In this document: positions 14,600-37,588 of the stretch, piece after piece
Layout of the letters: each line of letters begins with the position of its first letter
How positions within the stretch are numbered: the first letter of the stretch is position 1
Sequence record: SRR2962707_2248
Length of the DNA stretch: 40,031 nt
Reading direction: 5' to 3' (one strand)
Position numbers and translations under genes: made by a program
The notes under the pieces: generated by a model
Told to the model about the DNA's origin: nothing
Seen by the model: only the letters and a program-made list of their open reading frames with translations
Database searches by the model: none

Positions 14600-14610
14600 A
14601 CACAACTGAA

Positions 14611-16483: not shown

Positions 16484-17191
16484 TCAATTCATGGGTACTT
16501 CTATGAACAATAACTCTGAATCCTTTTTTGCAGAAATGATTACCTCATTGACCTCTGAGACTCCAATGGCATCACGTTTTTCAAGGGTTTCATTATCCAA
16601 ATTGATTTGACCCTCAATCACAAATACATACACCCCATTGCCTGCTTTATTGAGATTATAAGTAATGGCATTTCCGTCAGACAAACTGGCCAGAGAAAAG
16701 TAGGCATCCTGATTGATCCAAAGTGCCTGCTCATCAACAGGAGAAACGACCGTCTGAATCTTGTTGATTCTATCGGATGACTCAAATATTCTCTGGTCAT
16801 ACCTCGGCTGGATGTCTTTGTTTTTAGGGAACACCCAAATCTGAAGGAAATTCACCTCATCCGTTTTACTGGCGTTATATTCTGAGTGGGTCAGTCCGCT
16901 TCCTGCGCTCATAATTTGTACCTCTCCGGTTTTGATCATTTTCTCAGTTCCCGTGCTATCCATGTGTGCCAAAGCTCCCTTCAACGGGATGGAAACAATT
17001 TCCATGTTATCGTGTGGGTGTGTAGGAAACCCTGCACCACCCCGGACAATGTCATCGTTAAGCACTCTCAACATTCCAAAATGGATCCTGTCAGGATTGT
17101 AATACTGGCCGAAACTGAATGTATGCCTACTTTTTAGCCACCCAAAGTCAACTGTTCCCCTACTATCTGCTTTATGAATTACCTTTTTCAT
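16484..17191 (-). CDS. Pirin family protein (YhhW-like)
   Basis: Motifs GWLKSRHTFSF, LRVLNDD, GFPTHPHDNMEI, QIMSAGSG..HSE, LQIW. Confidence 0.95.
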   Translation of the reverse strand: MKKVIHKADSRGTVDFGWLKSRHTFSFGQYYNPDRIHFGMLRVLNDDIVRGGAGFPTHPHDNMEIVSIPLKGALAHMDSTGTEKMIKTGEVQIMSAGSGLTHSEYNASKTDEVNFLQIWVFPKNKDIQPRYDQRIFESSDRINKIQTVVSPVDEQALWINQDAYFSLASLSDGNAITYNLNKAGNGVYVFVIEGQINLDNETLEKRDAIGVSEVNEVIISAKKDSELLFIEVPMN

Positions 17192-17218
17192 TTCGTATTC
17201 CTTTCTTTTGATTATTAA

Positions 17219-17253
17219 ATATACGTAAATACATTTAATGTAGTTACATATAT
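17219..17253. promoter_or_regulatory. Long AT-rich inverted repeat upstream of the pirin-VOC operon (repressor operator-like)
   Basis: ATATACGTAAATACATT-T-AATGTAGTTACATATAT, 17-bp arms with 2 mismatches. Confidence 0.5.
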
Positions 17254-17285
17254 AATGTGAAAAACAGGAGGCTAGAGATTTTTTG

Positions 17286-17293
17286 TACCTTTG
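17286..17293 (+). promoter_or_regulatory. Bacteroidota -7 promoter element for the PPIase gene
   Basis: TACCTTTG matches TAnnTTTG and lies about 30 bp before ATG 17323. Confidence 0.65.
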
Positions 17294-17322
17294 CGAGAAT
17301 TATTTCACAAGAAAAGAAAAAC

Positions 17323-17748
17323 ATGAAAGCTAAAGCTAACGACAAGGTAAAAGTACATTACACAGGAAAGCTCACTTCCGGCGAGGTATTTGATTCCTCT
17401 GAAGGGCGTGACCCGTTAGAATTCACTGTGGGTGGCGGACAAATGATTAAAGGCTTTGATGAGGCGGTAAACGGAATGGAGATTGATGAAAAGAAAACGG
17501 TAACCATCCCGACTGCTGAAGCTTATGGAGATAGGAGAGACGAATTAATTCAGGATGTTCCTAAGGATCAGCTTCCTGAAGACATGAAGCCGGAGGTGGG
17601 GCAGAAGCTGGTAGCGACCAATGATCTGGGACACCAAACATACGTTTCTGTAACGGCTGTATCTGATGATGCGATCACAGTAGACGCCAATCATGAATTG
17701 GCCGGCAAGGATTTGGTTTTTGATATCCAACTTGTAGAGATCGGGTAA
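17323..17748 (+). CDS. FKBP-type peptidyl-prolyl isomerase (SlyD/SlpA-like)
   Basis: Motifs VKVHYTGKL..GEVFDSS..RDPLEF, EAYG, VDANHELAGKDLVFDI. Confidence 0.93.
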   Translation: MKAKANDKVKVHYTGKLTSGEVFDSSEGRDPLEFTVGGGQMIKGFDEAVNGMEIDEKKTVTIPTAEAYGDRRDELIQDVPKDQLPEDMKPEVGQKLVATNDLGHQTYVSVTAVSDDAITVDANHELAGKDLVFDIQLVEIG

Positions 17749-17767
17749 AAAGATTTAAAAATTAAAT

Positions 17768-17799
17768 AGAAGAGGCCTTGATTCAGGGCCTCTTTTTTT
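17768..17799 (+). terminator. Rho-independent terminator
   Basis: AAGAGGCCTTG-ATT-CAGGGCCTCTTTTTTT. Confidence 0.85.
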
Positions 17800-17847
17800 A
17801 TGCCATTTTTGTGGTATCTTAATCGCAAAAGCAGTTTTAAACCTGGA

Positions 17848-19659
17848 ATGAAAAAACCACTTCTCCTTCTCTCATTTGTGATCGCTTTGGGTGCTTACAG
17901 TCAGGATAGCCTACGATCAGACAGTATTCAGCGGGCAGTCAATAGCCTGAATCAGCAGCTAAATACGTACGAGCGATTGCTCGATGAGAACATCCAACGG
18001 CGCAGGCAGGATTCACTGGCTCGTGTAGATTTAATGAAGCGAATCCAGTTACTTCAGGAGAGTGATAAGCTGAGTCAGGCGACCCTTCGTGAACAAATAA
18101 AAGAGATTGAGCAAAGAGACTCTGCACGAAATGCGGAGCAAAGAGAACGTATCCTCCGGCTTAGAGAAAGCACAAAGGGCTATACTGTAAAGCCTCTTGG
18201 TGATTCACTTTTTACCATTTTCACCAAATTGGGTCCGGTGATGGCAGAAGAAAGAGCTTCCAATGTCTCGGAAAAATTAAAGCTGCTTGTCAGAGATGAT
18301 TTTTTCTATCCGGATTCACTATACCGGGAGGAACATGGAGGAACAATTGATGTGATGTATCAAAACCTGATCATTACGAGTGTGTCCGATTGGGACGTAC
18401 TATGGGTAGAAGGGATCAGTAAAGATTCACTGGCCGGTACGTACCAGCGTAGTATTCTGGAATTTGTAAATAAATCCAGAAACCGCAGTACCATTCAAAA
18501 TATTGCAGCAAGGATTGGCTTGGTTTTTTTAGTGATTGGAGGTGTGGTCTTGGTCCTGTATTTCATTCGTCGCATTACGAATGGCATCCAGGGGTGGATG
18601 GTTCTTAACAAGAATAAATATTTCAATGGTTTGCGGCTAAGGAGCTATGAATTCCTTCCTCCACCATTGCATCTGGACATTAGTGTTCGGATGGTGTCTT
18701 TTTTGAAATGGACACTATACGCATTAGTCCTTTACCTCTCACTTCCGTTAGTATTCGGGCTTTTCCCATTTACACGCAGCTGGGCAAATACATTACTGGA
18801 TTGGATATTAAGTCCTGCGCGGGATATTTGGTTTGGCTTTTGGAATTACCTGCCCAATGTATTCACCATCATAGTCATTTATCTCATTACGCGATATCTG
18901 GTAAAATTCCTGAAGTTCATTGCTACGGAAGTCGAAATATCAGCACTCACCATCCCCGGTTTTTATCCGGATTGGGCCCTGCCAACATACCGTCTGGTGA
19001 AGTTCCTGATCTATGCTTTTATGCTGGTGATGATATGGCCTTATTTGCCGGGTTCCGATTCTGATATTTTCAAAGGAGTTTCTATTTTCATTGGGTTGTT
19101 GATATCCTTTGGATCTACCTCAGCTATTGCCAATGCAGTTGCCGGATTGGTCATAACCTACATGCGTCCTTTTAAAGTAGGTGACCGGGTAAAAATAGGA
19201 GAGGTGACGGGACAGATCATTGAGAAGACGTTGTTGGTGACCCGGGTCAGGACCACCAAGAATGAAGACATCACAGTGCCAAACTCCGCTATACTTACGG
19301 GTCACACTGTCAATTACACGAGTAGCAGCAAAGAACTTGGACTCATACTGAACACCTCTGTAACGATCGGTTACGATGTGCCCTGGAGAAAAGTGCATGA
19401 ATTGTTGATTGAGGCAGCAGTAGCCACCGAAGGGGTGAATATCAGCAAAGAGCCGTTTGTGCTGCAAACCAGCCTTGACGATTGGTATGTGTCATATCAG
19501 TTGAATGCGTATACAGATGCGCCGGAGTTGATGCCCAAAACTTATTCATTGTTGCATGCTAACATTCAGGATAAGTTCAATGAGGCAGGTATTGAGATTA
19601 TGTCTCCGCACTACAGAGCGGTAAGGGATGGGAATATGACTACCATACCTAAGAGATAA
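17848..19659 (+). CDS. MscS family mechanosensitive channel with a large periplasmic N-terminus
   Basis: Signal peptide, coiled coil, TM helices, RPFKVGDRVKIG, ITVPNS, TIGYDVPW, FNEAGIEIMSPHY. Confidence 0.92.
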   Translation: MKKPLLLLSFVIALGAYSQDSLRSDSIQRAVNSLNQQLNTYERLLDENIQRRRQDSLARVDLMKRIQLLQESDKLSQATLREQIKEIEQRDSARNAEQRERILRLRESTKGYTVKPLGDSLFTIFTKLGPVMAEERASNVSEKLKLLVRDDFFYPDSLYREEHGGTIDVMYQNLIITSVSDWDVLWVEGISKDSLAGTYQRSILEFVNKSRNRSTIQNIAARIGLVFLVIGGVVLVLYFIRRITNGIQGWMVLNKNKYFNGLRLRSYEFLPPPLHLDISVRMVSFLKWTLYALVLYLSLPLVFGLFPFTRSWANTLLDWILSPARDIWFGFWNYLPNVFTIIVIYLITRYLVKFLKFIATEVEISALTIPGFYPDWALPTYRLVKFLIYAFMLVMIWPYLPGSDSDIFKGVSIFIGLLISFGSTSAIANAVAGLVITYMRPFKVGDRVKIGEVTGQIIEKTLLVTRVRTTKNEDITVPNSAILTGHTVNYTSSSKELGLILNTSVTIGYDVPWRKVHELLIEAAVATEGVNISKEPFVLQTSLDDWYVSYQLNAYTDAPELMPKTYSLLHANIQDKFNEAGIEIMSPHYRAVRDGNMTTIPKR

Positions 19660-19743
19660 TTTTTTACTATCACTTATTTCCGTTACTTTTAATTGTAGGA
19701 TTAGACATCAACCAGATCATGATTTTAACCATTAACGATTGTC

Positions 19744-21396
19744 ATGAAACGGTTATCAGGGTTATTAGCGCTTGCTCCATTATTGGTTGGAGCAAGGGGT
19801 GATGAAGATTTAATAATTTCAGAGCAGGCTGTTTCAGTTTGCTCTATTCAGCAGGTTCAAAACCCGTCAACAGGAGAGTATTTTACTAACCTGTTGAGCA
19901 CGGAAAATTGGCCCGCCAGATGGACTTGCGGTACATGGTCTGCCGCAGATGGATGGATTTACATCATATCCGATCTCATCATCTTTGCCGCCTATTTGTC
20001 TATTCCCATCATGCTGTTCATATATCTCTGGAAGCGTAATTTGGGATTCTTTAAGCCTCTGACTTTTGCATTCGGTGTTTTCATACTTTCCTGTGGTGTT
20101 ACACATCTCGTTGATGCGATTATTTTTTGGGAACCGATCTATCGTTTTAGCGGATTCGTCAGGGCAATCACAGCGGTTGTTTCTGTTGCTACCGTGGGAC
20201 TGATGATAAAATCTATTCCAACAGCACTAACATTTAAAAGTCCGGTCACATTACAAAGAGAAGTTGATTTGGCCGTTGCTGAATCAAAGGAATTGAATAG
20301 TATACTCCAGGAGTCTTTCAGTATTGCCAAGATCGGTACATGGAAATTGGATCTTCAAACCAGTCAAGTAATATGGAGTGATTCATTGTACGATATTTAC
20401 GAAATCCCACATGGGACACCTATTGATCTGCAAAAAAGTCTGGATATGTACCCGGGACAGGAAAAGCTCATAGAGGATACCATAGCTAAGGCAATCGCGG
20501 ACAGAAGTAATTATGATCTGGAATTGCTGGTAACTAAACCCAATGGTGAACAGCTTTGGACAAAAGCCATTGGTATTTTAGAGGTCCATGGAGAAGAGGT
20601 CACAAGCATTCGGGGCTATGTGATGGACATTGATACAAGTAAACAATTAGAGGTTGAACGGAAAAAATCCCGTGAAAAATTGGAGAAAGAGGTGAACACC
20701 AGGACGAGGGAGCTGAAGGCGGTGAATCAGGAACTGGAATCATTTAGTTATTACATTTCTCATGACTTAAGAGCTCCACTTAGAGCGATTAATGGTTTTT
20801 CTGAAGCACTTCTCGAAGACTACAAGCCTAAACTTGACGATGAGGCTAGCAGATATTTAGACAGGATATCCTATAACAGTCGAAAAATGGGTGAGCTGAT
20901 CGATGATATTCTTGCATTTAGCCGGATGAACCGTAAGGAAACCAACTTTAAAAGTGTAAATCTCAGTAAAGTAGTTACTGATCTGATCAATAATCTGTTT
21001 GTCGAATCTAAATCAATTATTCAAGTCAGAAATCTTCCTGAAATCTATGGGGATAAAGAAATGATTAATCAGGTTTTCGCAAACCTTTTATCAAATGCAA
21101 TTAAATATTCCTCAAAAGAAGAATCACCTTTAATCGAAATAGTTGGAGAAGAATTCGAGGACTCATACTTAGTTAAAATCGTCGATAATGGTGTTGGGTT
21201 TAACATGCAATATGCCGACAAGCTATTTATGGTATTTCAAAGGTTACATTCAGATGAGGAATTTGAAGGCACAGGAGTAGGTCTGGCTCTTTGCCAAAGA
21301 ATAATGAGTATGCATAATGGCGAGATATGGGCGCATAGTGAGGAAGGTAAGGGAGCAACTTTTTTTCTAAAATTTAAAAAGCAAATGAATGACTGA
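19744..21396 (+). CDS. Sensor histidine kinase: ETR1-like ethylene-binding TM domain + PAS + HisKA + HATPase
   Basis: ISDLIIFAAYLSIP...FGVFILSCGVTHL...RAITAVVS aligns to the ETR1 TM1-3 motifs. H-box ISHDLRAPLRAI, N-box NLLSNAIKY, G boxes DNGVG and GTGVGL. Confidence 0.9.
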   Translation: MKRLSGLLALAPLLVGARGDEDLIISEQAVSVCSIQQVQNPSTGEYFTNLLSTENWPARWTCGTWSAADGWIYIISDLIIFAAYLSIPIMLFIYLWKRNLGFFKPLTFAFGVFILSCGVTHLVDAIIFWEPIYRFSGFVRAITAVVSVATVGLMIKSIPTALTFKSPVTLQREVDLAVAESKELNSILQESFSIAKIGTWKLDLQTSQVIWSDSLYDIYEIPHGTPIDLQKSLDMYPGQEKLIEDTIAKAIADRSNYDLELLVTKPNGEQLWTKAIGILEVHGEEVTSIRGYVMDIDTSKQLEVERKKSREKLEKEVNTRTRELKAVNQELESFSYYISHDLRAPLRAINGFSEALLEDYKPKLDDEASRYLDRISYNSRKMGELIDDILAFSRMNRKETNFKSVNLSKVVTDLINNLFVESKSIIQVRNLPEIYGDKEMINQVFANLLSNAIKYSSKEESPLIEIVGEEFEDSYLVKIVDNGVGFNMQYADKLFMVFQRLHSDEEFEGTGVGLALCQRIMSMHNGEIWAHSEEGKGATFFLKFKKQMND

Positions 21397-21832
21397 ACTC
21401 AGGGAAATTCAAATAATCCTCGTAGAGGACAGCACGGATGATGCCGAGCTTACCATGCGATCATTAAAGAAAAGTAATGTGGTAAATGATATTGTATGGC
21501 TGAAAGATGGGGAAGAAGCATTGAATTACTTATTAAGGAAAGGACATTACTCAGAGCGTGATTTGTTAAAGAAACCAAAGCTAATTCTGCTTGATTTGAA
21601 GCTACCCAAGGTAAGCGGAATTGAAGTGCTGGAAGTGATCAAAAAAAATGAAGATTTAAAGGCAATTCCGGTAGTAGTCATGACGTCATCTCGCGAGAAC
21701 CAAGATTTAGAAAAATGTTATCAACTGGGAGTGAATAGTTATGTAGTGAAACCCATAAACTTCAATAAGTTCATGAATCTGGCAAATGAAGTCAGCATGT
21801 ATTGGGTCATGATCAATAAAACTCCGGATTAG
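21389..21832 (+). CDS. Single-domain response regulator (Rcp1/CheY-like)
   Basis: Motifs LVEDS, LLDLKLPKVSG (phospho-Asp), MTSS, NSYVVKP. Overlaps the kinase stop. Confidence 0.93.
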   Translation: MTELREIQIILVEDSTDDAELTMRSLKKSNVVNDIVWLKDGEEALNYLLRKGHYSERDLLKKPKLILLDLKLPKVSGIEVLEVIKKNEDLKAIPVVVMTSSRENQDLEKCYQLGVNSYVVKPINFNKFMNLANEVSMYWVMINKTPD

Positions 21833-21856
21833 GATTTTGAGAAGGTTGAGCGAGAT

Positions 21857-23626
21857 ATGGAAAACAAAAAGAAACCGATAGCAATACTATACCTGGAAGA
21901 CAATGAGGATGATGTGGAGTTGTTAAGACTAACATTGAATAAATCAAACTTGCATTACAATCTCTCATGTGTGTCCACAAAAGATGAGTTTCTGAAATTG
22001 AATCTTCAGGATTATGATGTGATTATTACAGACTATAACCTTACAGACTATGATGGCCTCTCTGCCATTAAATATATCAGATCGCTTGATGTGGCCATTC
22101 CAATAATACTTCTTTCCGGCACTGTTGGTGAGGAGCTGGCCGCAGATTTATTACGCGCAGGAGCTAATGATTTTGTTTTAAAATCCAACATGAAAAAGAT
22201 TGTGATTGCAGTTGAGCGAGGCATTAGAGAGACCTCAATGGTGCGTGAGAAAAAACGATTTCAAAAAGAGCTTCTGGAAAAAAACCTTATTCTGGATACC
22301 ATTTTTGACAGTTTTGACGATTTAATCTTCTTAAAGAATGCTGATGGGAGATATTTAAAAGTGAATAAGGCCTTTTGTGAATTTATCAAAATGCATGAAG
22401 CGGAGTTGGTTGGGCATACTGATGCAGAATTATTTCCTGGTAAAATTGCCGAACAATCCAAAGAACAGGATGAGTATGTGAAACTATCCGGAAAGCCTGT
22501 AACCTATGATATGGAAATGACAATCGACAATCAAAGAAAGGTGCTTGAAGCTACAAAAACACCCCTGATTATTGATGATGAGGTGACCGGAATTGTTGGT
22601 AAATATCACGATATAACAACAAGGAAAATACTGCTTGAGGAGACAATGAAAGCTAAGTCTATTTTAAGTCAGGCTGAAAAATTAACTCGTTCGGGGAGTT
22701 TTGAGTATGATTCAAATCTGGATCTGATTAGCTGTAGCTCAAATTTCAAGCATATTCTGAAATTACAGATTGAAGGAGACACCATTTCCTTCAGGAAACT
22801 TACTCACCTTGTAAAAGAGGAGGATCGGAGCATTTTTGTAGAAGGAATAACGACAGCAATTGAAAACTATGAAGAGTATCATAATGAACACCGTTTCCGT
22901 GTTTCCTTAAACGGGAAGGAAGGCATTTACTATTTTAAAGTGGTATTAAGGCCAGACTATAAGGACAAAAACAGTACGCGTTTTTACGGCACCATCGTAG
23001 ACGTAACTACTGAGCATGAAAACCAAATCTACCAGTTGGACAGGCAGGAGCGCGATCGAAAGGAAATTGCGCGAGAGTTGCATGACAACCTGGGTCAGAA
23101 GATGAATGCTATCTCCATGTTTATTAGTAAGATATCTGACGGTTTTCCTGACAACAAGGACTTGATAAAGGTTAAGAACCTGGCACATGAGTCCATCGAT
23201 GATCTGGGTTATCTAATCAATAATATTTCCGTAAAGCAAATTGAAGAGCATAGCTTAGGGTATGCAATTGACAAGCTAATAGGGTACATGCCTGAAGAAA
23301 TGATTGTGTATCGCGAATACAATATCGATGAGAAGATGCTTTCTACTTTTGTAAAAGCACAGGTCTACCGTATAGCACAGGAGGCTTTAAATAATGTCCT
23401 GAAGTATAGTAAGGCCACTCATGTTCAAATGAACCTTCACCAGGAAGGAGGAGTTTTAAGTTTGTATATTGAAGATAATGGGAAGGGGTTCGCGAAGGAA
23501 AAAGTGCTGACGGGTAATGGGCTCCAGAATATTATTCATCGGGTTCGCCGTAGCAACGGACTCGTGGATATCGATTCTAAGATCGGAGAGGGTACACGCA
23601 TCAAAGTAAAAGTTCCGGTTAGCTAA
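21857..23626 (+). CDS. Hybrid kinase: REC + PAS + PAS + HisKA_3 + HATPase (copy 1)
   Basis: LYLED, IITDYNL, FVLKS; PAS IFLKNADGRYLKVN; EIARELHDNLGQ; QEALNNVLKYS; EDNGKGF; GNGLQNI. Confidence 0.88.
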   Translation: MENKKKPIAILYLEDNEDDVELLRLTLNKSNLHYNLSCVSTKDEFLKLNLQDYDVIITDYNLTDYDGLSAIKYIRSLDVAIPIILLSGTVGEELAADLLRAGANDFVLKSNMKKIVIAVERGIRETSMVREKKRFQKELLEKNLILDTIFDSFDDLIFLKNADGRYLKVNKAFCEFIKMHEAELVGHTDAELFPGKIAEQSKEQDEYVKLSGKPVTYDMEMTIDNQRKVLEATKTPLIIDDEVTGIVGKYHDITTRKILLEETMKAKSILSQAEKLTRSGSFEYDSNLDLISCSSNFKHILKLQIEGDTISFRKLTHLVKEEDRSIFVEGITTAIENYEEYHNEHRFRVSLNGKEGIYYFKVVLRPDYKDKNSTRFYGTIVDVTTEHENQIYQLDRQERDRKEIARELHDNLGQKMNAISMFISKISDGFPDNKDLIKVKNLAHESIDDLGYLINNISVKQIEEHSLGYAIDKLIGYMPEEMIVYREYNIDEKMLSTFVKAQVYRIAQEALNNVLKYSKATHVQMNLHQEGGVLSLYIEDNGKGFAKEKVLTGNGLQNIIHRVRRSNGLVDIDSKIGEGTRIKVKVPVS

Positions 23627-23639
23627 AACAGTAATAAAA

Positions 23640-24278
23640 ATGAGGACACTTCTATTAGTGGATGATCACCAAATTATCAGAGATGGTATTCGGTTTTACT
23701 TCGAGGGCGATGACGAGTTTGTCATAAAAGATGAAGCTGAAAATGGCTTGGAGGCACTGGATTTGTTGAGGGATAATGAATATGACATTATACTTACGGA
23801 TATCAATATGCCAAAAATGGATGGCATAGAATTTATGAAAACACTCAGGGAAAATCACCCTGATCAGAAAGTACTGGTACTGTCCATGTATAATGAGGCC
23901 GGTTATATCAATAAAATGATTGCCCTGGGTGCAAATGGTTATGTATTGAAGAAATCGACCAAAGACGAATTGGTTGAGGCCATCAAAAAAATCCTTGACG
24001 GAGGAGATCATTATTCGGAAGAGGTATATAAGACAATCATAGGTAATATAGCAGGGCGAAAACCAAAGGAGCGATTGACCCTTGAAACAGAACTATCTGA
24101 AAGAGAAAAAGAGGTGTTGGTCTTGATCACCAATGAATACACCAATAAGGAAATTGCCGATAAGTTATTCATCAGTATTCGTACAGTGGAAACCCACAAA
24201 AGAAACCTTCTGGAAAAGACAGGTTGCAAGAATATAGCAGGCCTTGTGATGTACGCGGTTGAGCGAAACCTGGTTTAG
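23640..24278 (+). CDS. NarL/FixJ family DNA-binding response regulator (REC + LuxR HTH)
   Basis: Motifs VDDHQIIRDG, DINMPKMDG, LSEREKEVL, EIADKLFISIRTVETHKRNL. Confidence 0.95.
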   Translation: MRTLLLVDDHQIIRDGIRFYFEGDDEFVIKDEAENGLEALDLLRDNEYDIILTDINMPKMDGIEFMKTLRENHPDQKVLVLSMYNEAGYINKMIALGANGYVLKKSTKDELVEAIKKILDGGDHYSEEVYKTIIGNIAGRKPKERLTLETELSEREKEVLVLITNEYTNKEIADKLFISIRTVETHKRNLLEKTGCKNIAGLVMYAVERNLV

Positions 24279-24351
24279 TCTGCCGTTTTTTCTAATCTTT
24301 GAAATTTTAGTTAATTTATTAGAATCTTCCAATTAGGGAGATTTATTGCAT

Positions 24352-27300
24352 ATGGATCACCAGCTATTTATAAAAGATCTAAACAAACCTGTTGTCATCC
24401 TCGATGTAGATCAAGGGCATTTCATCGATTGCAACAAGCTGGCACTTGAATTTTTTCAACTATCTAAAAAGGAAATACTAAGCAAAAACCCCTTCGATCT
24501 AAGCCCACCGAATGTTTATGGTCATGAAGCAGCGGCCTACAGCAGACAGGTCATCCAGGAGGCACTTGCAGGAGCAAACCCGGTTTTTGACTGGATTCAT
24601 ATAGACAAGGAGGGTAATGAAATTCCCTGTGAAGTACGGCTATTCCGATTTCCTCCATTCAATAGGCAGCTGGTCAGAGGAACTATCATTGACAAACGAA
24701 AGGAAACAAATCTCGATTTACGGGAAACTGAAGAGCGTCTTCGGTTATCTATGGAGGCGTCTCAAATCGGAATATTTGATTTTTACCCTCAAGCAAACAA
24801 AGTGACTTGGAACGATCGGCTCTTCGATATTTTTGAGTTGGATCCAACAAATAAAATAGATCTAAATAAGCACTTTTTTAGCATCATTCACCCAGACGAT
24901 AAAGAGCAGGTTACTCAGGAATTTGAGGAAGCACTGAATCCCAAAGGTCCGGATACCAGAAGCAATGAATATAGAGTAATCGTCAGCGGTAAGACCAAAC
25001 ATGTTTTAGCTTATAGTCGGCTCATTAGGAATGATGATGGAGAAGTCATTCGAATGCTTGGTACCACTCAAGACATCACAGCCTTAAGGGAGTCTGAAAA
25101 GAGATTGAGGGAAAATGAAGAACTGCTAGACTCCATCATTCAGGATCAGAAGGAAATGATTGTCCGGTGGAAGCCGGGTGGCTTCCGAACATTTGTGAAT
25201 AAGGCATACTGTGAGACATTTGACCTTGATCCTAAAGAAGCGATTGGTAAAAGTTTCTTTCCTCAGCTGGAAAAATCTTTTCTCAAGGAATTTAAAGAGG
25301 ACATAAAAAAGCTCACCAGTAAAAATCCGGTGCGGACCTATACAATAAATAACCACATGCCAAATGGTAAGAAAGTATGGCAGGAATGGTCTGACCGGGC
25401 TTATTTTGACAGAAAAGGAAACCCTGTAGAATATCAAAGCGTCGGGAGAGACATCACTGCTCAGAGGGAAAGTGAACTTGAACAACAATTAATATCTGAG
25501 CGTCTTAAAGCAGTTTCTGGTAATCTACCTGGTGTTGTTTTACGTTACAGGCTCAACCCTGATTTTTCCGATGAACTAACGTTTATTAGTAATGGTATTC
25601 GTGATCTTCTAGGTGTGGAAGTAGATGATGCTATTTCTGATATAAACACGGTATGGTCAAGGTTTCTCCATGAAGATGTAGAGAAAGTCAAGCAATCTAT
25701 TCAAGAGTCATATATGCGTATGAGTAGGTGGTATGCCGAATGGAGAATTTATCTGGCAAATGGAGGAGTGGGATGGGTTCAGGGAACAGGAGATCCCAAA
25801 AAGCTTGAAGATGGCAGTGTGATATGGGACTCGGTCATCCTTGATATTACTGAGCAGATGCAAATCAAGAAGGAGTTCGAAAAGAATGAAAATCTTTTCC
25901 GATCCATCGTTCAGGATCAGGACGAAATGATCGTACGTTGGAAGCCGGGAGGTGTCCGTACTTTTGTGAATAAAGCCTACCTCGATTTCTACAACCTTAA
26001 AGAAGATCAGGTAATTGGTACCAGCTTTTTTGATTTGATTTCTCCGGAAGATCAGGATAGAGTAAAAAAGGAAATCGAAGCACTCACGCCCGAAAATCCG
26101 GCACGTGATAAGGTGCACAGTGTAGTTCTTCCTGATGGTACTCAAGGATGGCAAAAGTGGAAGGATCGCGCCTTTTTTGATGAGTCAGGAAATCCGGTCG
26201 AATATCAGAGTGTTGGTACAGACATTACACTGATAATAGAAGCCGAAAAAGCACTGGAAGAAAGTGAAGCTCGCTACCGTAACGTCTTCAATCAGCAATT
26301 TCAGTTCACTGCTTTGCTGGATATTGAAGGAAAGGTTGTGTTGATCAACGACCTGCCACTAAAGATTCAAGGTCTATCGAGAGAAGATTATACTGGAAAA
26401 TTATTTTGGGAATCACCGGGATGGAAGGGAAATGAAGAGTGGGAGAATAAGGTAAAAAGCCAGGTTCTTTTCACAAAGAAAACGGGAGAGCCTCTGATCG
26501 TTGAGGATCCTTATTATGGGGCTGATAAAGAAGTGAGGTGGGCAAAGGCCGCTTACAGTACAATACAGAATAGTGATGGAAAAATCGAGAATATTTTGGT
26601 TCAGGCGATTGACATTACGATTGAAAAAGATGCCAAAAAAGAGATTGAAGAGCGGGAGCGTAAACTCTCACTGATCTATGGTAATACGAATGATTTTATC
26701 CTTTTAATCCGGTGTGATAAAAATGGATATTTTATTGAAGAGATCAATGATAGCTGCATGCAATTACTTGATCTCTTCAATCTGGATATCCCCAAAGAGA
26801 AGCTAATTGGAGTATCCATGCATGATGTTTATGAAGATTTACTTCAATTCTCCCAAGAGAAAGTGACAGAAAGAGTCCAAGCTTTTGATTTTATAAAGAA
26901 TCGAAGAGAACCGGTCTCATATCAACAAGAGATGAAAACCAACAAAGGCTTTCTGATTACAAATGTCGATGTTGTACCGGTTATTCAGGAGGGTCAAGTG
27001 ACTCATCTTCTCATGGTGGCAAAGGATATTACGGAAACCTTTCTGGGTCAAAAGAAGCTGGAAGAGGCCTATAAAGAGGTAAATAAATTGAAGGCGCAAT
27101 TAGAGCAGGAAAACATTTACTTAAAAGAAGAGATCAAGCAAGCCAATGATTTTGAGAACATGGTCTTTAGGAGTAAAGAGTTTAGAAACGTTCTCAACAA
27201 AGTAGAGCAGGTGGCCAAGACAAATGCAACCGTTCTGATTACAGGTGAAACAGGGACAGGAAAGGAATTGATAGCTCGTGCTATACACAATGTCAGCAAG

Positions 27301-28086
27301 AGATCAGCAAAACCTATGATCAAGGTAAATGCGGCGGCCATTCCCAAGGATCTGATTGAGAGTGAGCTGTTTGGTTATGAAAAAGGAGCTTTTACGGGGG
27401 CGACCAGTGCAAAGCCAGGAAAGTTTGAATTAGCTGATGGAGGATCCATTTTTCTCGATGAGATTGGCGATATGCCAATGGACTTGCAGGTTAAAATATT
27501 GCGAGTATTGCAAGAGAGTGAGGTAGAGCGTCTTGGCAGCACCAACTCTAAAAAAATTGATATCCGAATAATTACTGCCACCAACAGGAATTTAGAGAGA
27601 GCAGTAAAGGAGGGGAAATTCAGGGAAGACCTTTATTTCCGGTTAAATGTGTTTCCTATCGAGATACCTCCTTTGCGGTCCAGACCGGATGATGTGCCTA
27701 TTTTGGTCGAGCACTTTATTTCGAAGTACAATTCAAAGCACAGCAAAAACATAAATTCTATCTCTAAGTCGGTGATGAATTACATGAGAAACTATGCCTG
27801 GCCAGGCAATGTCAGAGAGCTGGAAAATATTGTAGAACGGGCTGTTATTTTATCACCTGCAGGAAATCTGGAGCTTCCTGAAATAGTAGAAAGTGAAAAA
27901 ACCAAAGACAAGTGGGAGCATGATAATGCCCTCGATGTGATTCAGGAAAATCACATCCGTAAAGTTTTATCAGAATGCCATTGGAAGATAGAAGGTAAGA
28001 ATGGAGCAGCAGCCCAGCTTAAGATCAAGCCGAGTACGCTCAGGGACAAGATGAAAAAGTTTGACATAAAACGACCTAAAAGTTAA
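24352..28086 (+). CDS. Multi-PAS sigma54-dependent transcriptional activator (PAS array + AAA+ + Fis HTH)
   Basis: About seven PAS/PAC-like segments, [48 protein letters not shown], and C-terminal [16 protein letters not shown]. Confidence 0.93.
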
Positions 28087-28088
28087 TC

Positions 28089-28142
28089 CACGGTATACCG
28101 TGATTCTCATAATGCAACGTTTTTATTCCACGGATAACCGCG
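28089..28142. promoter_or_regulatory. Pair of palindromic upstream activator-like sites
   Basis: Perfect palindrome CACGGTATACCGTG (28089-28102) and a related copy CACGGATAACCGCG (28129-28142), 40 bp apart, both followed by ATT. Confidence 0.65.
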
Positions 28143-28231
28143 ATTATTTTCGATTAAGTATTTTACTTATTGATATTTAATACCCTTCATTGTCAGATAG
28201 TTACAGGTCCTTTTTTCTACCTTCGAATAAC

Positions 28232-28247
28232 TGGCACGTCCATTGGT
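28232..28247 (+). promoter_or_regulatory. Sigma54 -24/-12-like promoter
   Basis: TGGCAC-GTCCA-TTGGT versus consensus TGGCAC-N5-TTGCW (one mismatch at the -12 C). It lies about 90-130 bp downstream of the palindromes. Confidence 0.6.
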
Positions 28248-28259
28248 AATGGATTTTGC

Positions 28260-28685
28260 GTGACAGTTTCAAAAAATCAAATCGAGCTAAAGACAGGCAC
28301 ACATTGGATTGAAGATTCCTGTGTGCATTCTGCATTCTTTATTCCCAATGGTTGTCCGATGATAGACAGCCGAATGATCAGGGAGCATATTGAGGCATTG
28401 GATCTTTTTTTGGATGATGGTATAAGGATTCCTTTTTTAATAGACCTTACATCATCTGAAAGTGTGTTCAGCTTTAATGCGTTAAAAACCTGGGGACAGA
28501 GTAATGACCTTAATGCCTATCGATCGGCGGAAGTCTATGTAGTAGACACGCTTGCTGATTTGATCTTTTTAAAACAGCACATCCGACTAAATAAGCTGGA
28601 TTATCCTGCGAGGGTATTTCAATCTCTCTATCAGGCAAAAGATTGGCTCAGGAAACTCGGAAACAATCACCACAGTCCTATTTAA
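28260..28685 (+). CDS. STAS/SpoIIAA-like (STAS/SEC14) small protein
   Basis: PFLIDL, AEVYVV and C-terminal YPARVFQSLYQAKDWL typical of SpoIIAA-like proteins. Start uncertain; in-frame GTG 28260 chosen because upstream codons overlap the promoter. Confidence 0.55.
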   Translation: MTVSKNQIELKTGTHWIEDSCVHSAFFIPNGCPMIDSRMIREHIEALDLFLDDGIRIPFLIDLTSSESVFSFNALKTWGQSNDLNAYRSAEVYVVDTLADLIFLKQHIRLNKLDYPARVFQSLYQAKDWLRKLGNNHHSPI

Positions 28686-28710
28686 TCATTTAAATAAGGC
28701 ACAACTAGAA

Positions 28711-30480
28711 ATGGAAATGAATATGGAAGGCGAAAGGAAGTGTGAGATCAGAGTATTAATGCTGGAAGACAATGCGGATGATGTGCTTTTGGCGCAGGGG
28801 ATGTTATCAAAAAATGGCATTAATTACACAATGCGTATAATTGATACGGAAAATGAACTGAAATCAGAAGACTTGACCCATTATGATTTGGTTCTTTGTG
28901 ACTATAATCTCACCGATTATGATGGTCTTCGTTCAGTGCAATACATCCGTGAGCATACAGATATCCCAATCATTATCGTGTCCGGTTCTATAAATGAGGA
29001 GATGGGATGTGAGCTGCTGGAAGCAGGTGCTCAGGAATTTGTGAAAAAATCGTGTTTGAGAATCTTGCCTCACATAGTTAAAAAGTCCCTTGCTCACTAC
29101 GAACTGAAAAAGCAGTCTGCCGAATGTAACAGGATGTATGAAAAGACATCTCAGATGTTCGAAACGCTGTTTGATGGTTTGGAAAACCCGGTGTTCATTA
29201 AAGATACCGAGGGTATATACCAACGTGTCAATGCTGCTTTTTGCAGGTTATATGAAAGAAGTGAGGCTGAGCTAATTGGAAGATCCGATGAGGAACTCGA
29301 CTGGATGCACTTAAGTGAAAAATCCATGAGGGATGACAGGTTTATTTTGGATAAAGGGGTGTCGTCAAATTACGAGTTGAATTACCTTAATGAAAAAGGT
29401 GAGCGGGTATGGCTGGCTGTGACTAAAAATCCAATTTTTACCGATGGGAAAATTTCAGGAATACTAGGACAGGCACGAGATATAACAAAAAGCAAAAATG
29501 CCATCGCCATAATGGAAAAGTCCCAGTTTGTACTATATCAAACCGAGGAGTTGACCCGGGCAGGCAGTTTTGAATATGATGTGGATTTGGACCTGGTCAC
29601 GTGTTCTAAAAACCTCATGAAAATGCTGGGGCTTCATTCCAATCAGATATCCCTGAGCAGGTTGGTTCGACTGATCAAGAAGGAAGATCGTACCATTTTT
29701 CTCGATGGTATTAATAATAGTATTGAAACGAAGCGGGAGTATAGGATGGAACATCGATACATGCTTAATGAAAAAAATCAGGGGCATTTTGAAATCCTTT
29801 TTAGACCGGACTACAGAGATGAAACGGGCAACACATTTTATGGAATCATTGTAGATATTACTGATGAATCCAAGGAAAGTATCTCCCGACTGGAGTATCA
29901 TGAAGAATCTAAAAACGAGATAGCAAGGGAATTGCATGATAATCTAGGCCAAAAACTCAATGCCGCTTCTATGTACCTGGGCAAAGTGATCTCATGTAAT
30001 GATTGTACATCAGTAATCTCAAAAGCAACAGATGTTTTACACGAGGGGATCAATGATCTTGGACGGTTGATTACCGGTATTTCCCTTAAAGAAATAGATG
30101 ATATTTCATTGCAGTATGCACTGGAAAAATTAACCAACTGCCTGCCTGATGGAATGCGTTTAAACTTTGAATGCAATATTGATGAGTCAGCAATTTCAAA
30201 ATTTGTGAAGCGACAGGTATTTCGTATTGTACAGGAGACCGTAAACAATGCAGTGAAATACAGTCAGGCAAAAAACCTCAATATCATACTAAACCACGAA
30301 GGTAGTATCCTGAATATGATTGTAGAGGACGATGGCAATGGATTCGATATACTGACCGCCACAAAAGGAAACGGCCTGATCAATATTACCCACAGGGTTA
30401 AAAAGTCCAATGGCTTGATCAATATTGATTCGAGAAGAGGAGAGGGTACCAAGGTGAGGGTAAAAATGCCGGTTGCTTAA
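28711..30480 (+). CDS. Hybrid kinase: REC + PAS + PAS + HisKA_3 + HATPase (copy 2, paralog of 21857-23626)
   Basis: Shares DYNLTDYDGL, GSFEYD, RPDY, EIARELHDNLGQK, GNGL and IDS..GEGT with copy 1. Confidence 0.88.
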   Translation: MEMNMEGERKCEIRVLMLEDNADDVLLAQGMLSKNGINYTMRIIDTENELKSEDLTHYDLVLCDYNLTDYDGLRSVQYIREHTDIPIIIVSGSINEEMGCELLEAGAQEFVKKSCLRILPHIVKKSLAHYELKKQSAECNRMYEKTSQMFETLFDGLENPVFIKDTEGIYQRVNAAFCRLYERSEAELIGRSDEELDWMHLSEKSMRDDRFILDKGVSSNYELNYLNEKGERVWLAVTKNPIFTDGKISGILGQARDITKSKNAIAIMEKSQFVLYQTEELTRAGSFEYDVDLDLVTCSKNLMKMLGLHSNQISLSRLVRLIKKEDRTIFLDGINNSIETKREYRMEHRYMLNEKNQGHFEILFRPDYRDETGNTFYGIIVDITDESKESISRLEYHEESKNEIARELHDNLGQKLNAASMYLGKVISCNDCTSVISKATDVLHEGINDLGRLITGISLKEIDDISLQYALEKLTNCLPDGMRLNFECNIDESAISKFVKRQVFRIVQETVNNAVKYSQAKNLNIILNHEGSILNMIVEDDGNGFDILTATKGNGLINITHRVKKSNGLINIDSRRGEGTKVRVKMPVA

Positions 30481-30545
30481 TTGATGAGTTAAAAAGAAAT
30501 TTGTAGTAAGTGAGTTGCCTCTCTCAGAGGCAGTGATTAGGTGAG

Positions 30546-30574
30546 AACCTGCCGCGAGAGCGGTGGGTTTTTTT
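30546..30574 (+). terminator. Rho-independent terminator closing the signalling cluster
   Basis: AACCTGCCGC-GAGA-GCGGTGGGTTTTTTT. Confidence 0.8.
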
Positions 30575-30666
30575 ATTCTAATGGCATTCCCCTTAATGTC
30601 GAAAAGAAAGAATTTTAATAGTTCTTATTGAACCTTATCCCGAACTCAGATTAAATTAGAAGGGTG

Positions 30667-31428
30667 ATGGAATTTGAAAAGTTAACAGACCTTTTTCCAA
30701 AAGTATACTTCAATATTGGCATTCGCTATTTGCTGGCTGCCGGGTTGGCCTTTCTGCTATTCTATGTCATTTTCCGTAAGAGATTCCTAATCAAAAGGAT
30801 TCAAGCCACCTTTCCCAGGACTGCTGATTATCGGAGAGACCTGCTTTATTCTTTACTGACGGTGTTTTTCTTCACCATTATCGCATTGCTCACATTCTTT
30901 GTGCTTAAGCCTTACACGTTGCTATATGATTCGTTGGGTGTCAAGACCGTGTGGTACTGGTTGCTCACGGTCATCCCTATGTTTTTCATTCATGACTTTT
31001 ATTTCTATTGGGCCCATCGACTGATGCATCATCCCAAACTTTTCAAGGCGGTTCATAAGGTCCACCATCTTTCTACCAATCCGTCACCATGGACAGCCTA
31101 TGCGTTCCATCCTTTGGAGGCTTTTATAGAGGCAGCCATTATTTTAATTTTTGCTTTTACAGTTCCCACACACGCATTCATCATCATGCTGTTCATGATC
31201 TTTCAGATCATTTACAACGTGTATGGCCACCTGGGGTATGAACTGTTTCCAAAAGGATTTCACAAAACAGTGATTGGCCGGTATGTAAATACCTCCGTGG
31301 CACATAATCAGCATCATGCCCGGTTTCATGGAAACTATGGCCTTTATACGCTCATTTGGGATCGGCTATTTGGAACGGTGAGAGATGATTATGATCAGTC
31401 CTTTGAGCAGGCGACAGGAAAAAAGTAA
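30667..31428 (+). CDS. Sterol desaturase / fatty acid hydroxylase family di-iron membrane enzyme
   Basis: His boxes HRLMH, HKVHH, HNQHH, plus FHPLE and NYG...WDRLFGT. Confidence 0.9.
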   Translation: MEFEKLTDLFPKVYFNIGIRYLLAAGLAFLLFYVIFRKRFLIKRIQATFPRTADYRRDLLYSLLTVFFFTIIALLTFFVLKPYTLLYDSLGVKTVWYWLLTVIPMFFIHDFYFYWAHRLMHHPKLFKAVHKVHHLSTNPSPWTAYAFHPLEAFIEAAIILIFAFTVPTHAFIIMLFMIFQIIYNVYGHLGYELFPKGFHKTVIGRYVNTSVAHNQHHARFHGNYGLYTLIWDRLFGTVRDDYDQSFEQATGKK

Positions 31429-31633
31429 AGCCGACCCTTCTCAGAGCCGGCCTCTACTCACTACTAAAGTATCACAACCAACTATTAAATCCGGCCCGCT
31501 CTCACGGGCCGGCTATCATTAAAACACCTTATCACGGTTAGTGAAAAGATGTCATACTTACGAAGTGGGGGTGGGGTTTGGATTTTTATCACCTCACCCT
31601 AGTCGAAAAACAAATAAGGAGGGTTTTTGTGAC

Positions 31634-31705
31634 ACCTCACCCCAACCCCTCTCCTTTGAGGAGAGGGGCTACTCCTTCTCCTTGAGGAGAAGGCCGGGAT
31701 GAGGT
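31634..31705. repeat. REP/REPIN-like double-hairpin element, copy A
   Basis: ACCTCACCCCAACCCCTCTCC-TTTGA-GGAGAGGGG, then CCTTCTCC-TTGA-GGAGAAGG...GGGATGAGGT. The ends ACCTCA/TGAGGT are inverted. Confidence 0.8.
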
Positions 31706-31717
31706 ACTCTTACTTTA

Positions 31718-32086
31718 TCAAGTTCGCTTTAAATAGCTCAAGATTTTATCAACAGTCTCCGCCATTCCATACATCACATCATCATTTGAAAATCGAAGGA
31801 TTGTGATTCCCAGTTCTTGTAGCTCGAAGGTGCGACCTTCATCGTATTCGTATTGATCTAACTCGTCGTGGTAGGACCCATCCAATTCTATTCCTATATT
31901 ACACTCGTGACAGTAGAAGTCGAGAATATAATTTTTGACCGGATGTTGCCTTCTGAATTTAAAACCGCCCAATCTTCTGTTTCTCAACTTCTCCCAAAGG
32001 AATGCTTCTGCATCAGTAGGCTTCTGCCGGTTTTCACGTGCGTATTGGAATTGTTTGCCAGCTGCGTTTTTATGGAATTCGGTCAT
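31718..32086 (-). CDS. DUF559 (Vsr-like, PD-(D/E)XK fold) endonuclease domain protein
   Basis: Motifs ARENRQKPTDAEAFLWEKLR, FRRQHP, YILDFYC, IELDGSYH, LRFSN. Confidence 0.9.
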   Translation of the reverse strand: MTEFHKNAAGKQFQYARENRQKPTDAEAFLWEKLRNRRLGGFKFRRQHPVKNYILDFYCHECNIGIELDGSYHDELDQYEYDEGRTFELQELGITILRFSNDDVMYGMAETVDKILSYLKRT

Positions 32087-35607: not shown

Positions 35608-36069
35608 ATGAAAAAGCAACTGTTATTACCACTTCTTTTTGCCGCCGTTCTAGGAACAGCATCCGCGCAAAATGTAATCGTAAGAACCTATGTAGAAAAG
35701 ACTCACATGAGTCCGAAGACCGGAACCGCCATTGGCTTTGAAAACAAGTACCAATGGGAATATGGAGCATTCTTCCAGGAAGCCTCCTTGATGGAATCCT
35801 TCATGATGAGCGAAGAAGAACTGGAGTCACTTCCACATCAGTATGAAAGGGATTTTGCAGGTATATACTTCGCAGTACCAATCGTAGCGCGAGAGCAATT
35901 TGTCGTGAAAGCCAATGTACGTACCGGGATGTCAAACGGAGAAAACTTCGTGATCACTCCATCGGTGTTGGCAGACTATAAGCCTATAAAGCACTTCAGA
36001 ATAGGACTAGGTGTGGGCTCCAGAGCTTTTCGTCCTACACTTCAGGCATCTGTTGCCCTTTCATTCTAA
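35608..36069 (+). CDS. Secreted hypothetical protein, probable small outer membrane beta-barrel
   Basis: Signal peptide ending ASA-Q, alternating beta-strand pattern, C-terminal Phe (VALSF). Confidence 0.6.
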   Translation: MKKQLLLPLLFAAVLGTASAQNVIVRTYVEKTHMSPKTGTAIGFENKYQWEYGAFFQEASLMESFMMSEEELESLPHQYERDFAGIYFAVPIVAREQFVVKANVRTGMSNGENFVITPSVLADYKPIKHFRIGLGVGSRAFRPTLQASVALSF

Positions 36070-36104
36070 AATCCATTTTAAAAGACCTATAAACTCATAA
36101 TAAA

Positions 36105-36524
36105 ATGAACGCTCAAATGATACAACACAATTCTCAGGAAGAAGTATCCCCCCTCAGAGTTGTAAAAAGTGATTTGAAAATATTCACTGTCCGATACATG
36201 GAAACACTGAACCTGATCCTTGCTACAGGCTGGAGCATCACGGACGATGCGTGGATCAAATACTGCCAGATGATATCGGACATTGATCTTCATCTCAGAA
36301 GAAATGAAGAACTGAATATCTACTTCAAGCTGGAGCTATTCAATGCTTCATCGGCAACCTACATTTTTAAGATCATCAAAAGACTGAATGAGGCGCACAA
36401 AAAAGGAAAAGCCGTGAAGATCTATTGGAACTGTGCATCTGCGTACCATGATGCTGCGATTTTGGAAGCTGGTTTGGATATGGCGGGTATGTGTGACTTC
36501 AAGTTTCAGATTACCGAAGCATAG
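36105..36524 (+). CDS. SiaC/DUF1987-like protein
   Basis: ATGWSITDD, FKLELFNASSATYIFKIIKRL, VKIYW and LEAGLD resemble the SiaC pattern F.LEYFNTSS...V.I.W...E.G.D. Confidence 0.65.
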   Translation: MNAQMIQHNSQEEVSPLRVVKSDLKIFTVRYMETLNLILATGWSITDDAWIKYCQMISDIDLHLRRNEELNIYFKLELFNASSATYIFKIIKRLNEAHKKGKAVKIYWNCASAYHDAAILEAGLDMAGMCDFKFQITEA

Positions 36525-36546
36525 ATCAAGAAAACCACTGAAGACC

Positions 36547-36978: not shown

Positions 36979-36988
36979 GCTACAAGTC

Positions 36989-37567: not shown

Positions 37568-37588
37568 AAAACATAATTAAGAACTTAA

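Follow-up and report, generated by a model that had tools for sequence, protein, structure and literature searches.

A seven-gene signalling cluster headed by an ethylene-receptor-like histidine kinase in an Ekhidna-like marine bacterium

To our knowledge, functional studies of bacterial ethylene receptors are limited to two, and what is known downstream of each is its immediate receiver or regulator. AzoEtr1 of Azospirillum brasilense is a 525-amino acid protein consisting of an ethylene-binding domain (EBD), a PAS domain and a kinase, which binds 14C-ethylene and whose stop codon is overlapped by the gene for a 135-amino acid single-domain receiver (PMC11819568). A longer relay is described in Leptospira, where the kinase LvrA phosphorylates a second kinase, LvrB, on its receiver (REC) domain, freeing the LvrB catalytic domains, and LvrB in turn phosphorylates LvrC (PMC13269768). 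Here we examine seven adjacent genes, g1 to g7, in a 40,031-nucleotide stretch of DNA from sequence record SRR2962707_2248 (the whole of which we call the window). They are headed by a membrane histidine kinase with an ethylene-receptor-type domain, and they form a chromosomal signalling locus of an Ekhidna-like marine Cytophagales bacterium.

Our best explanation of the whole, which we hold tentatively, is that the cluster consists of two modules, g1–g4 and g5–g7, that probably converge on one transcription factor. In the first, the ETR1-type copper/ethylene-binding domain of g1 and the PAS region behind it would act as sensor, and the membrane kinase would autophosphorylate and pass its phosphate to g2 and/or the N-terminal REC domain of g3. 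By analogy with LvrB, phosphorylation of this REC domain would switch on the HisKA_3 kinase of g3, whose PAS domains could provide a second input or gate; g3 would then phosphorylate g4, a NarL-type regulator expected to bind DNA. So read, the first module belongs to a known kind of cascade, with three tiers of phosphorylation. In the second module, the REC-less activator g5, governed by its own PAS array, would probably bind two palindromic repeats just past its stop codon and fire a sigma54-type promoter before g6–g7. Its output would add the STAS-fold protein g6 and a second REC-controlled kinase, g7, which would join the same route from g1 to g4.

Layout of the cluster and the g1–g4 module

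The genes and the signals between and after them are as follows.

19744-21396, + strand: g1, membrane sensor histidine kinase (ETR1_N, PAS-like, HisKA, HATPase_c), 550 amino acids; Pfam
21389-21832, + strand: g2, Rcp1-type single-domain response regulator, 147 amino acids; Pfam and PDB relatives
21857-23626, + strand: g3, REC-controlled histidine kinase (REC, PAS, a second PAS-like region, HisKA_3, HATPase_c), 589 amino acids; Pfam
23640-24278, + strand: g4, NarL/FixJ-type DNA-binding response regulator (REC-GerE), 212 amino acids; Pfam
24346-28086, + strand: g5, REC-less multi-PAS sigma54 enhancer-binding protein, 1246 amino acids; TTG start, with an ATG two codons on
28083-28105, no strand assigned: repeat 1 (direct repeat family D1), with a perfect 14-bp palindrome at 28089-28102; candidate activator site
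28123-28145, no strand assigned: repeat 2, which lies 40 nt downstream of repeat 1 and shares 78% identity with it; another candidate activator site
28232-28247, + strand: candidate sigma54 -24/-12 promoter, 15 of the 16 letters of the pattern (5 of which are N)
28260-28685, + strand: g6, predicted stand-alone STAS/SpoIIAA-fold protein, divergent DUF7793, 141 amino acids; the open reading frame from TTG 28170 has 171
28711-30480, + strand: g7, second REC-controlled PAS-PAS-HisKA_3 kinase and g3 paralogue, 589 amino acids; Pfam and alignment to g3
30543-30572, + strand: intrinsic-terminator-like hairpin after g7, 13 pairs (6 G-C), then a T-run

An earlier note on this DNA had described seven co-oriented genes over about 10.8 kb, with small gaps among the first five (an overlap, 24, 13 and about 70 bp) and a terminator at 30546. 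This layout is borne out. The list of open reading frames (ORFs) contains seven co-oriented + strand genes at 19744-30480, the gaps from g1 to g7 compute to -8, 24, 13, 67, 173 and 25 nt, and the hairpin at 30543-30572 is the sole strong + strand terminator-like structure across 17000-32000. The fifth gap is counted to GTG 28260, the probable start of g6, and would be 83 nt if counted to TTG 28170. The hairpin scan found no internal terminator within the cluster, including between g5 and g6. The domains that the note had named are all found by Pfam (g6 had been left undescribed), giving three kinases and four REC domains. ORFs of 80-148 amino acids on the opposite strand overlap the cluster genes, and we take them as spurious because they are nested in longer genes that encode recognizable domains. 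In NCBIfam, no equivalog cut-off is reached by any of g1–g7, only the generic PAS "sensory_box" model being passed, and an exact look-up in the protein collection returned no protein identical to any of them. Over the whole window, Rfam returned no family and the tRNA scan no tRNA.

In g1, ETR1_N (Pfam PF25487) scores 98.3 bits against a cut-off of 27 and covers residues 70-163, corresponding to profile positions 3-96 of 97; Pfam HisKA and HATPase_c are also present. Hydropathy peaks centred at 80-88, 110-121 and 144-153, on the admittedly crude Kyte-Doolittle scale, correspond to three transmembrane helices. Ahead of these sensor helices lie a signal-peptide-like N-terminus and a segment of about 45 amino acids with two conserved cysteines, and behind them, at about 190-315, lies a PAS-like region that we assign from the precomputed PAS_3 or PAS_9 matches of orthologues. 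The kinase core has its best NCBIfam similarity to LvrA (NF047465), below the cut-off. In the count of our table, ETR1_N is present in 107 of the 120 listed g1 relatives, in several architectures, and on this ground the claim of the earlier note that an architecture under such an input is new was overstated. Many of these relatives carry the names Ekhidna, Marinoscillum, Reichenbachiella or Cyclobacteriaceae.

Within residues 1-69 of g1 (window 19744-19950), one cysteine is invariant in all 30 relatives of the same length. It sits in either WPARWxCGxW or MPHGMCYxW, and these alternatives divide the family into two subgroups. Plant ethylene receptors also carry N-terminal cysteines, to which we liken this one; it may be a site of disulphide formation or dimerisation.

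The second gene, g2, begins 8 nt before the end of g1 and has Response_reg as its only Pfam match. Its PDB relatives are 5brj (1e-38), RcpB 1k66 (7e-29), Rcp1 1i3c (1e-25) and RcpA 1k68 (2e-24). It is thus a receiver-only protein of 147 amino acids, with phytochrome-associated relatives, directly after a Cph1-type kinase, as expected of the Rcp1 type. The setting of such pairs was surveyed in 78 Cph1-type kinase loci from many phyla, picked by generic kinase motifs; they constitute a background set rather than Ekhidna orthologues. A downstream + strand ORF lies within 400 nt in 58 of the 78 loci, and in 40 of these 58 the first such ORF encodes a REC-only protein (138-172 amino acids). A second ORF is present in 35 of the 40 and, by our own tabulation, is REC-headed in 27 and not in 8. 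The 27 comprise 18 histidine kinases (4 with HisKA_3), 6 HD or GGDEF/EAL proteins and 3 REC-PAS or short proteins; for some proteins with two REC domains, we deduced from where the next domain lies that the REC domain is N-terminal. The order kinase, receiver, REC-headed protein is widespread across many phyla. In two loci, L001 from a Flavobacteriales assembly and L066 from a Verrucomicrobiota assembly, the full order of kinase, receiver, REC-HisKA_3 kinase and NarL-type regulator is found. The two pairings that the earlier note had invoked as established, Cph1-class kinases with Rcp1-type receivers and HisKA_3 kinases with NarL regulators, are therefore both seen here, the former in the relatives of g2 and the 40 loci and the latter in the HisKA_3 hybrids of L001 and L066.

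Five of the 78 loci encode an EBD: L015 and L037, both Fulvivirga, and L011, L047 and L072. All five have a g2-like receiver (45-48% identity) next to the kinase. A REC-headed kinase directly follows the receiver in three of them, in L047 it comes after an extra 147-amino acid ORF, and a NarL-type gene closes two, both Fulvivirga. Together with our cluster, these loci suggest that a receptor-like kinase commonly tops a triad of kinase, Rcp1-like receiver and REC-controlled kinase in Bacteroidota and Verrucomicrobiota. In a quick IQ-TREE maximum-likelihood tree of 76 receiver domains, a single branch sets off each of three groups from the rest: the position-1 (support 81), the position-2 (94) and the NarL receivers (96). 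None of 200 label shuffles matched this grouping, although kinship inflates such clustering. In this tree, g2 falls in the position-1 group, with the L001 receiver as its nearest neighbour, and the REC domain of g3 in the position-2 group. The idea of the earlier note that g1 feeds the Rcp1-type receiver and/or the REC domain of the hybrid kinase fits the conserved triad together with the LvrA-to-LvrB precedent (PMC13269768), and such transfer is what we would predict.

The survey also yielded several observations in their own right. In the unrelated loci L023 (10778-11176) and L061 (2520-2912), a gene for a PF05635 "23S rRNA-intervening sequence protein" lies between the Cph1-type kinase and the Rcp1-like receiver. 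L047 (3096-3503) and L072 (6405-6824) have an additional g2-like receiver gene directly upstream of the EBD kinase, besides the downstream one. L072 is titled uncultured Bifidobacteriaceae and L010 Akkermansia muciniphila, taxon labels that seem not to suit what these contigs carry and may reflect mis-binning; in the receiver tree, the sister of the L072 receiver comes from a Verrucomicrobiota assembly.

The remaining members of the predicted phosphorelay are g3, g4 and g7. Pfam finds in g3 Response_reg at 10-117, PAS, HisKA_3 (28.5 bits, cut-off 24) and HATPase_c, and in g7 Response_reg at 15-115, PAS, PAS_3, HisKA_3 at 23.6 bits, just below the same cut-off, and HATPase_c. In both, the acceptor Asp and the Ser/Thr and Lys positions of the REC domain can be read by eye from the translation, and both fit the layout of a REC-controlled kinase, with a REC domain at the N terminus and DHp-CA behind it in a single chain. 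The best NCBIfam similarities of g3 are to UhpB and LvrB, and those of g4 to MctR and NarL, all under cut-off. Lying 13 nt downstream of g3, g4 contains Response_reg (106.5 bits) and GerE (65.5 bits), so that a HisKA_3 kinase stands next to a REC-GerE regulator. Aligned over their full length, g3 and g7 show 41% identity (E 7e-161) and nearly identical H-boxes, and their REC domains are sisters in the tree (SH-aLRT 98). Judged from this alignment, g7 is a local duplicate of g3 whose PAS region differs. The homology and the nearly identical H-box make it likely that g7 also serves g4, with the same kind of REC input, so that g3 and g7 probably both feed the single NarL regulator.

The g5–g7 half and the spacer between g5 and g6

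The g5 protein matches Sigma54_activat at 245.7 bits and AAA_lid_14, contains at least five PAS stretches, and has no Response_reg by Pfam; GAFTGA and Walker A motifs can be read from its translation. Two of its PAS units are near-duplicates that share one 16-residue string. Its relatives fall into two length classes, about 985 and about 1240 amino acids, a difference that the gain or the loss of one PAS pair could explain.

Repeat 1 lies directly after the stop codon of g5, and its 14-bp palindrome occurs once in the window at zero mismatches. The two repeats are 23 nt each; measured from the sigma54-like site, they span 149 to 127 nt and 109 to 87 nt upstream, a geometry typical of activator sites and their promoter. 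The site itself, 28232-28247, ends 12 nt before GTG 28260; nowhere else in the window is the sigma54 consensus matched with at most one mismatch. The presence of such a site and of palindromic repeats between g5 and g6 suggests that the g5 activator may drive g6–g7, and the sigma54-driven second tier proposed in the earlier note is to this extent plausible. The 14-bp palindrome was also considered as a terminator for g5 and rejected, as it would form a 6-bp stem with a 2-nt loop and is followed by no T-run on the + strand.

It is quite possible, however, that the site and repeats are there by chance or have another role, in which case g6–g7 would be expressed by read-through from upstream and the targets of g5 would lie elsewhere. 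Several findings weigh against the promoter. First, about 0.99 matches with at most one mismatch are expected per window, and at least one appears in 66 of 100 shuffles; by count the site is not significant, and its position alone is notable. Second, it has G in place of the conserved C at -12. Third, the implied transcript would start 1-3 nt before the GTG codon, an unusual leaderless arrangement. Fourth, the Fis-type HTH_8 domain of g5 is weak, at 18.7 bits against a cut-off of 22. A further finding cuts both ways: in one g6 homologue (P0124), which is 61-67% identical overall, an N-terminal extension keeps 9 of 13 residues across the promoter-like stretch, which could mean either that a promoter is conserved or that the stretch is coding and the g6 ORF truly begins further upstream. 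Read-through would also be in keeping with the lack of a terminator between g5 and g6 in the hairpin scan and with the unremarkable RNA fold of this spacer, which gave no sign of structured RNA (z = -1.38). On the other side, when scaled to one strand of the 173-nt spacer, the expectation by our own arithmetic drops to roughly 0.002 matches, the gene for an activator adjoins, the repeats lie 87-149 nt upstream, and g5 and g6 homologues occur together on six of six informative contigs, as judged by the proxy described below. Bacteroidota are known to have sigma54 regulons, and validated promoters can deviate at -12 (PMC12316311).

Of the two proteins that such a promoter would add, g6 is the less familiar. 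It has 12 close homologues, all Ekhidna-like, of which the full-length ones are 136-153 amino acids long and span 76-84% of the 171-amino acid ORF; in three, the initial Met falls on the site of GTG 28260 or at most three residues after it. The start of g6 is therefore probably this GTG, giving 141 amino acids. An AlphaFold (AF2) model has a pLDDT of 89.4 and a pTM of 0.83. Foldseek relates it to 2q3l, 4xs5, SpoIIAA (1tid_D) and RsbS at TM scores of 0.58-0.72 and, when SiaC is included, of 0.5-0.7, with all E values at least 5.8e-3 and none at or below 0.001; normalised by the target, the TM scores are 0.67-0.72 for 2q3l and 4xs5 and 0.68 for SpoIIAA 1tid_D. The predicted fold is a SpoIIAA/STAS-like alpha/beta fold. 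DUF7793 scores 16.6 against a cut-off of 26 in g6 itself, whereas a profile of the g6 family retrieved 95 representatives among 1.84 billion, and 25 of the 26 scanned reach the DUF7793 cut-off; this places g6 as a divergent DUF7793 branch. At the loop position where a Ser is usual, the protein lacks a strictly conserved one, and nothing points to a partner kinase or phosphatase. A complex prediction for g7 with g6 scored 0.00 and is informative neither way.

One cascade or insulated neighbours, and the nature of the signal

Whether the seven genes belong together was approached through related contigs, co-location being judged by identical contig size, which is only a proxy for the same contig. 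By this measure, g1, g5 and g6 all have relatives on each of three contigs, of 14547, 27821 and 73432 nt; a fourth, of 39869 nt, has relatives of g1 and g5. All six g6 homologues on contigs of at least 13 kb are paired with a g5 homologue on a contig of equal size; the remaining six are on contigs no longer than 9.5 kb.

Against a single cascade stand several other observations. On the 14547-nt contig, identities are 93% for g1, 73% for g5 and 67% for g6, and on the 27821-nt contig they are 80%, 78% and 91%; these discordant values suggest separate histories of the left and right halves. For the 222775-nt contig, which has an 83% identical g1 relative, no g5 or g6 homologue is among the matches listed. 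The five distant EBD loci of the survey lack g5, g6 and a HisKA_3 duplicate of the g7 kind, and their REC-headed kinases are HisKA. The receiver tree is a quick version, and its supports of 81 and 94 lie under the starred level. Kinases usually discriminate strongly among receivers, and adjacency is no proof of cross-talk; we infer the phosphotransfer, the ligand binding and the transcript alike.

These findings could indicate insulated neighbours, g1–g2, g3–g4, g5 and g6–g7, brought together by duplication and shuffling, with g2 acting through protein contacts, the REC domain of g3 fed by some other kinase and the targets of g5 distant. In keeping with this, g3, g5 and g7 have PAS sensors of their own, g5 lacks a REC domain, and relatives of the kinases and of the activator are so numerous in Ekhidna, Fulvivirga and Marinoscillum that chance adjacency is likely. 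We nevertheless consider this reading somewhat less likely than a cascade. The gaps in the left half are tight (-8, 24 and 13 nt) with no internal terminator, the triad recurs in 27 of 35 loci from many phyla with position-specific REC groups, and the four-gene order is complete in L001 and L066. We read the cluster as a widespread conserved four-gene module with a lineage-specific add-on, not as an ancient seven-gene system. For the interpretation in the earlier note as a whole, this means that the pairings, the triad and a plausible sigma54 tier stand, and that the unity of all seven genes is weakened by the discordance of g5–g6 from g1 and by the absence of g5-, g6- and g7-like genes from the distant EBD loci.

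The ligand of g1 is a separate matter from the wiring. In an alignment of 30 relatives of the same length, C62, Y84, I87, I114, C117 and H121 never vary, and conservation is at least 90% at D77 and P88; in 29 of the 30, a basic residue (K or R; R140 in g1) stands seven positions before the invariant S147. In ETR1, the copper/ethylene site consists of Asp25, Cys65 and His69, with Lys91 as the partner of the Asp (PMC10266040). The g1 spacings, 40 from D77 to C117 and 4 from C117 to H121, are those of Asp25, Cys65 and His69 in ETR1 (PMC10266040). Judged by eye, R140 may correspond to Lys91, with Arg instead of Lys. We take Y84, I87, P88 and I114 to be the other four of the "seven residues" of ETR1, by ETR1 numbering rather than by alignment. 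The equivalences in g1 as a set are thus drawn from spacing and numbering, and no PDB sequence matched the sensor region of g1 at E up to 1. From these conserved residues, and from these only, ethylene is the presumed ligand.

The same wiring might instead serve a signal other than ethylene: another small unsaturated or pi-acceptor molecule, copper or the redox state, or whatever the PAS region perceives, should that be the true input. Among the ETR1_N kinases, proteins of 550, about 680, about 810 and about 950 amino acids are all named Ekhidna sp., an odd range if all had one ligand; by the source names of its relatives, the host is marine and not plant-associated; and the basic residue of helix 3 is Arg where ETR1 has Lys91. 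A different input nonetheless seems less likely to us, because g1 retains all of the residues reported as necessary for copper/ethylene binding (PMC10266040, PMC11819568), and the EBDs of cyanobacteria and Azospirillum do bind ethylene (PMC11819568, PMC6682694). A term search of the Ekhidna algicida paper found no mention of ethylene, histidine kinases or two-component systems.

A more elaborate version of our explanation, a coincidence circuit in which an ethylene-type signal (a gas or an algal alkene) gates two paralogous REC-PAS kinases, one constant and the other made, along with g6, only when g5 fires its adjacent promoter, both acting on g4, is improbable as it stands; if true, it would be the first case of an ethylene-type input feeding an Lvr-like kinase-on-kinase cascade whose second arm is inducible, and would tie algal volatiles to bacterial behaviour.

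With regard to the genomic setting, the nearest relatives of the window proteins carry the name Ekhidna sp. (order Cytophagales), a genus with a diatom-killing species among its members. The window is part of a Bacteroidota chromosome. On one flank, the cluster is accompanied by FtsK, PyrD, a XerC/D-type recombinase, a SusC/SusD pair, pirin, FKBP and MscS, and on the other by a fatty-acid hydroxylase and small unknown genes. TAnnTTTG is the Bacteroidota -7 promoter motif, and it was not found in the spacers before g1, g5 or g6, an absence that we count in favour of the sigma54 module. Perfect copies stand directly 5' of the SusC-like gene and of ftsK (window 11608-15948 and 1439-1446), suggesting that ordinary promoters here follow the Bacteroidota consensus. 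Between the MscS stop codon at 19659 and the start of g1 there is neither this motif nor a + strand terminator; the motif is present at 17286-17293 (within window 17257-19743). From the lack of both, g1 might share a transcript with the FKBP and MscS genes. Further downstream, window 35608-37969 holds a run of small + strand ORFs, among them a SiaC-family (STAS-like) regulatory protein at 36105-36524, the second STAS-fold regulator in the window, and a protein at 37589-37969 with a LytTR DNA-binding domain and no receiver.

The cluster could matter in three respects. First, a triad under a receptor-like kinase would offer a concrete hypothesis of downstream wiring for bacterial ethylene receptors. 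Second, it points to marine, alga-associated bacteria as possible ethylene sensors. Third, a sigma54-driven duplicate kinase, if true, would constitute a compact inducible second arm of a phosphorylation cascade. This importance is tempered by the facts that every part belongs to a common family and that multi-kinase clusters are frequent in these genomes, and by the assignment of roles from sequence.

Comparison with known systems

Literature searches on bacterial ethylene receptors turned up no description of the seven-gene layout. The broader statement of the earlier note, that the architecture downstream of such a receptor is undescribed, went too far in another respect as well, as g1 and g2 together have the AzoEtr1/AzoRR layout (PMC11819568), and REC-controlled kinases and three-tier cascades are known. 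The likeness to AzoEtr1/AzoRR, the closest system so far characterised, includes the three-helix EBD, the PAS domain and the kinase (525 versus 550 amino acids) and the overlapping receiver gene (135 versus 147 amino acids) (PMC11819568). In contrast to AzoEtr1, g1 has an additional signal-peptide-like N-terminus and a Cys-containing periplasmic segment, and its host is a marine member of the Bacteroidota rather than a root-associated alphaproteobacterium. Further, g1–g2 are followed here by a REC-controlled kinase and a NarL regulator, whereas the main text of the AzoEtr1 paper is silent on the genes after AzoRR (PMC11819568). SynEtr1 (UirS) of Synechocystis is similar in combining an ethylene-binding kinase, phosphotransfer to a response regulator and then a second regulatory layer (PMC11819568). 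It differs in having a light-sensing domain and in that its second layer is a small RNA and not a kinase (PMC11819568); no RNA family is found in our window.

The Lvr system resembles the predicted relay in its logic, in that an upstream sensor kinase acts on the N-terminal REC domain of a second kinase, which then acts on a regulator of its own (PMC13269768). The g1 kinase core and the g3 REC domain also score best against the NCBIfam models of LvrA and LvrB, respectively. But the scores, 223.3 bits against 1200 for g1 and 86.4 against 500 for g3 (NF047465, NF047466), indicate that these are not orthologues and that only their logic is alike. LvrB lacks PAS, being REC-DHp-CA (PMC13269768), whereas g3 and g7 have PAS and a HisKA_3 DHp, and the Lvr output is an anti-sigma factor (PMC13269768), whereas the output here would be a NarL regulator.

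The pairs Cph1-Rcp1, CphA-RcpA and CphB-RcpB share with g1–g2 the HisKA H-box type of the kinase and the extended single-domain receiver; they have a bilin photosensor where g1 has an ethylene-binding domain. NarX/NarL-type pairs, PAS sigma54 activators and the partner-switch proteins SpoIIAA, RsbS and SiaC are of the same families as g3/g7 with g4, g5 and g6, respectively, although none of these genes reaches an NCBIfam equivalog cut-off. Each component, from the AzoEtr1-type pair and the Lvr-type cascade through the HisKA_3/NarL pair to the PAS-rich sigma54 activator and the STAS-fold protein, is thus known already. The novelty lies in bringing them together under an ethylene-receptor-like input, in finding that this input recurs on the triad in several phyla, and in what may be a duplicate arm driven by sigma54.

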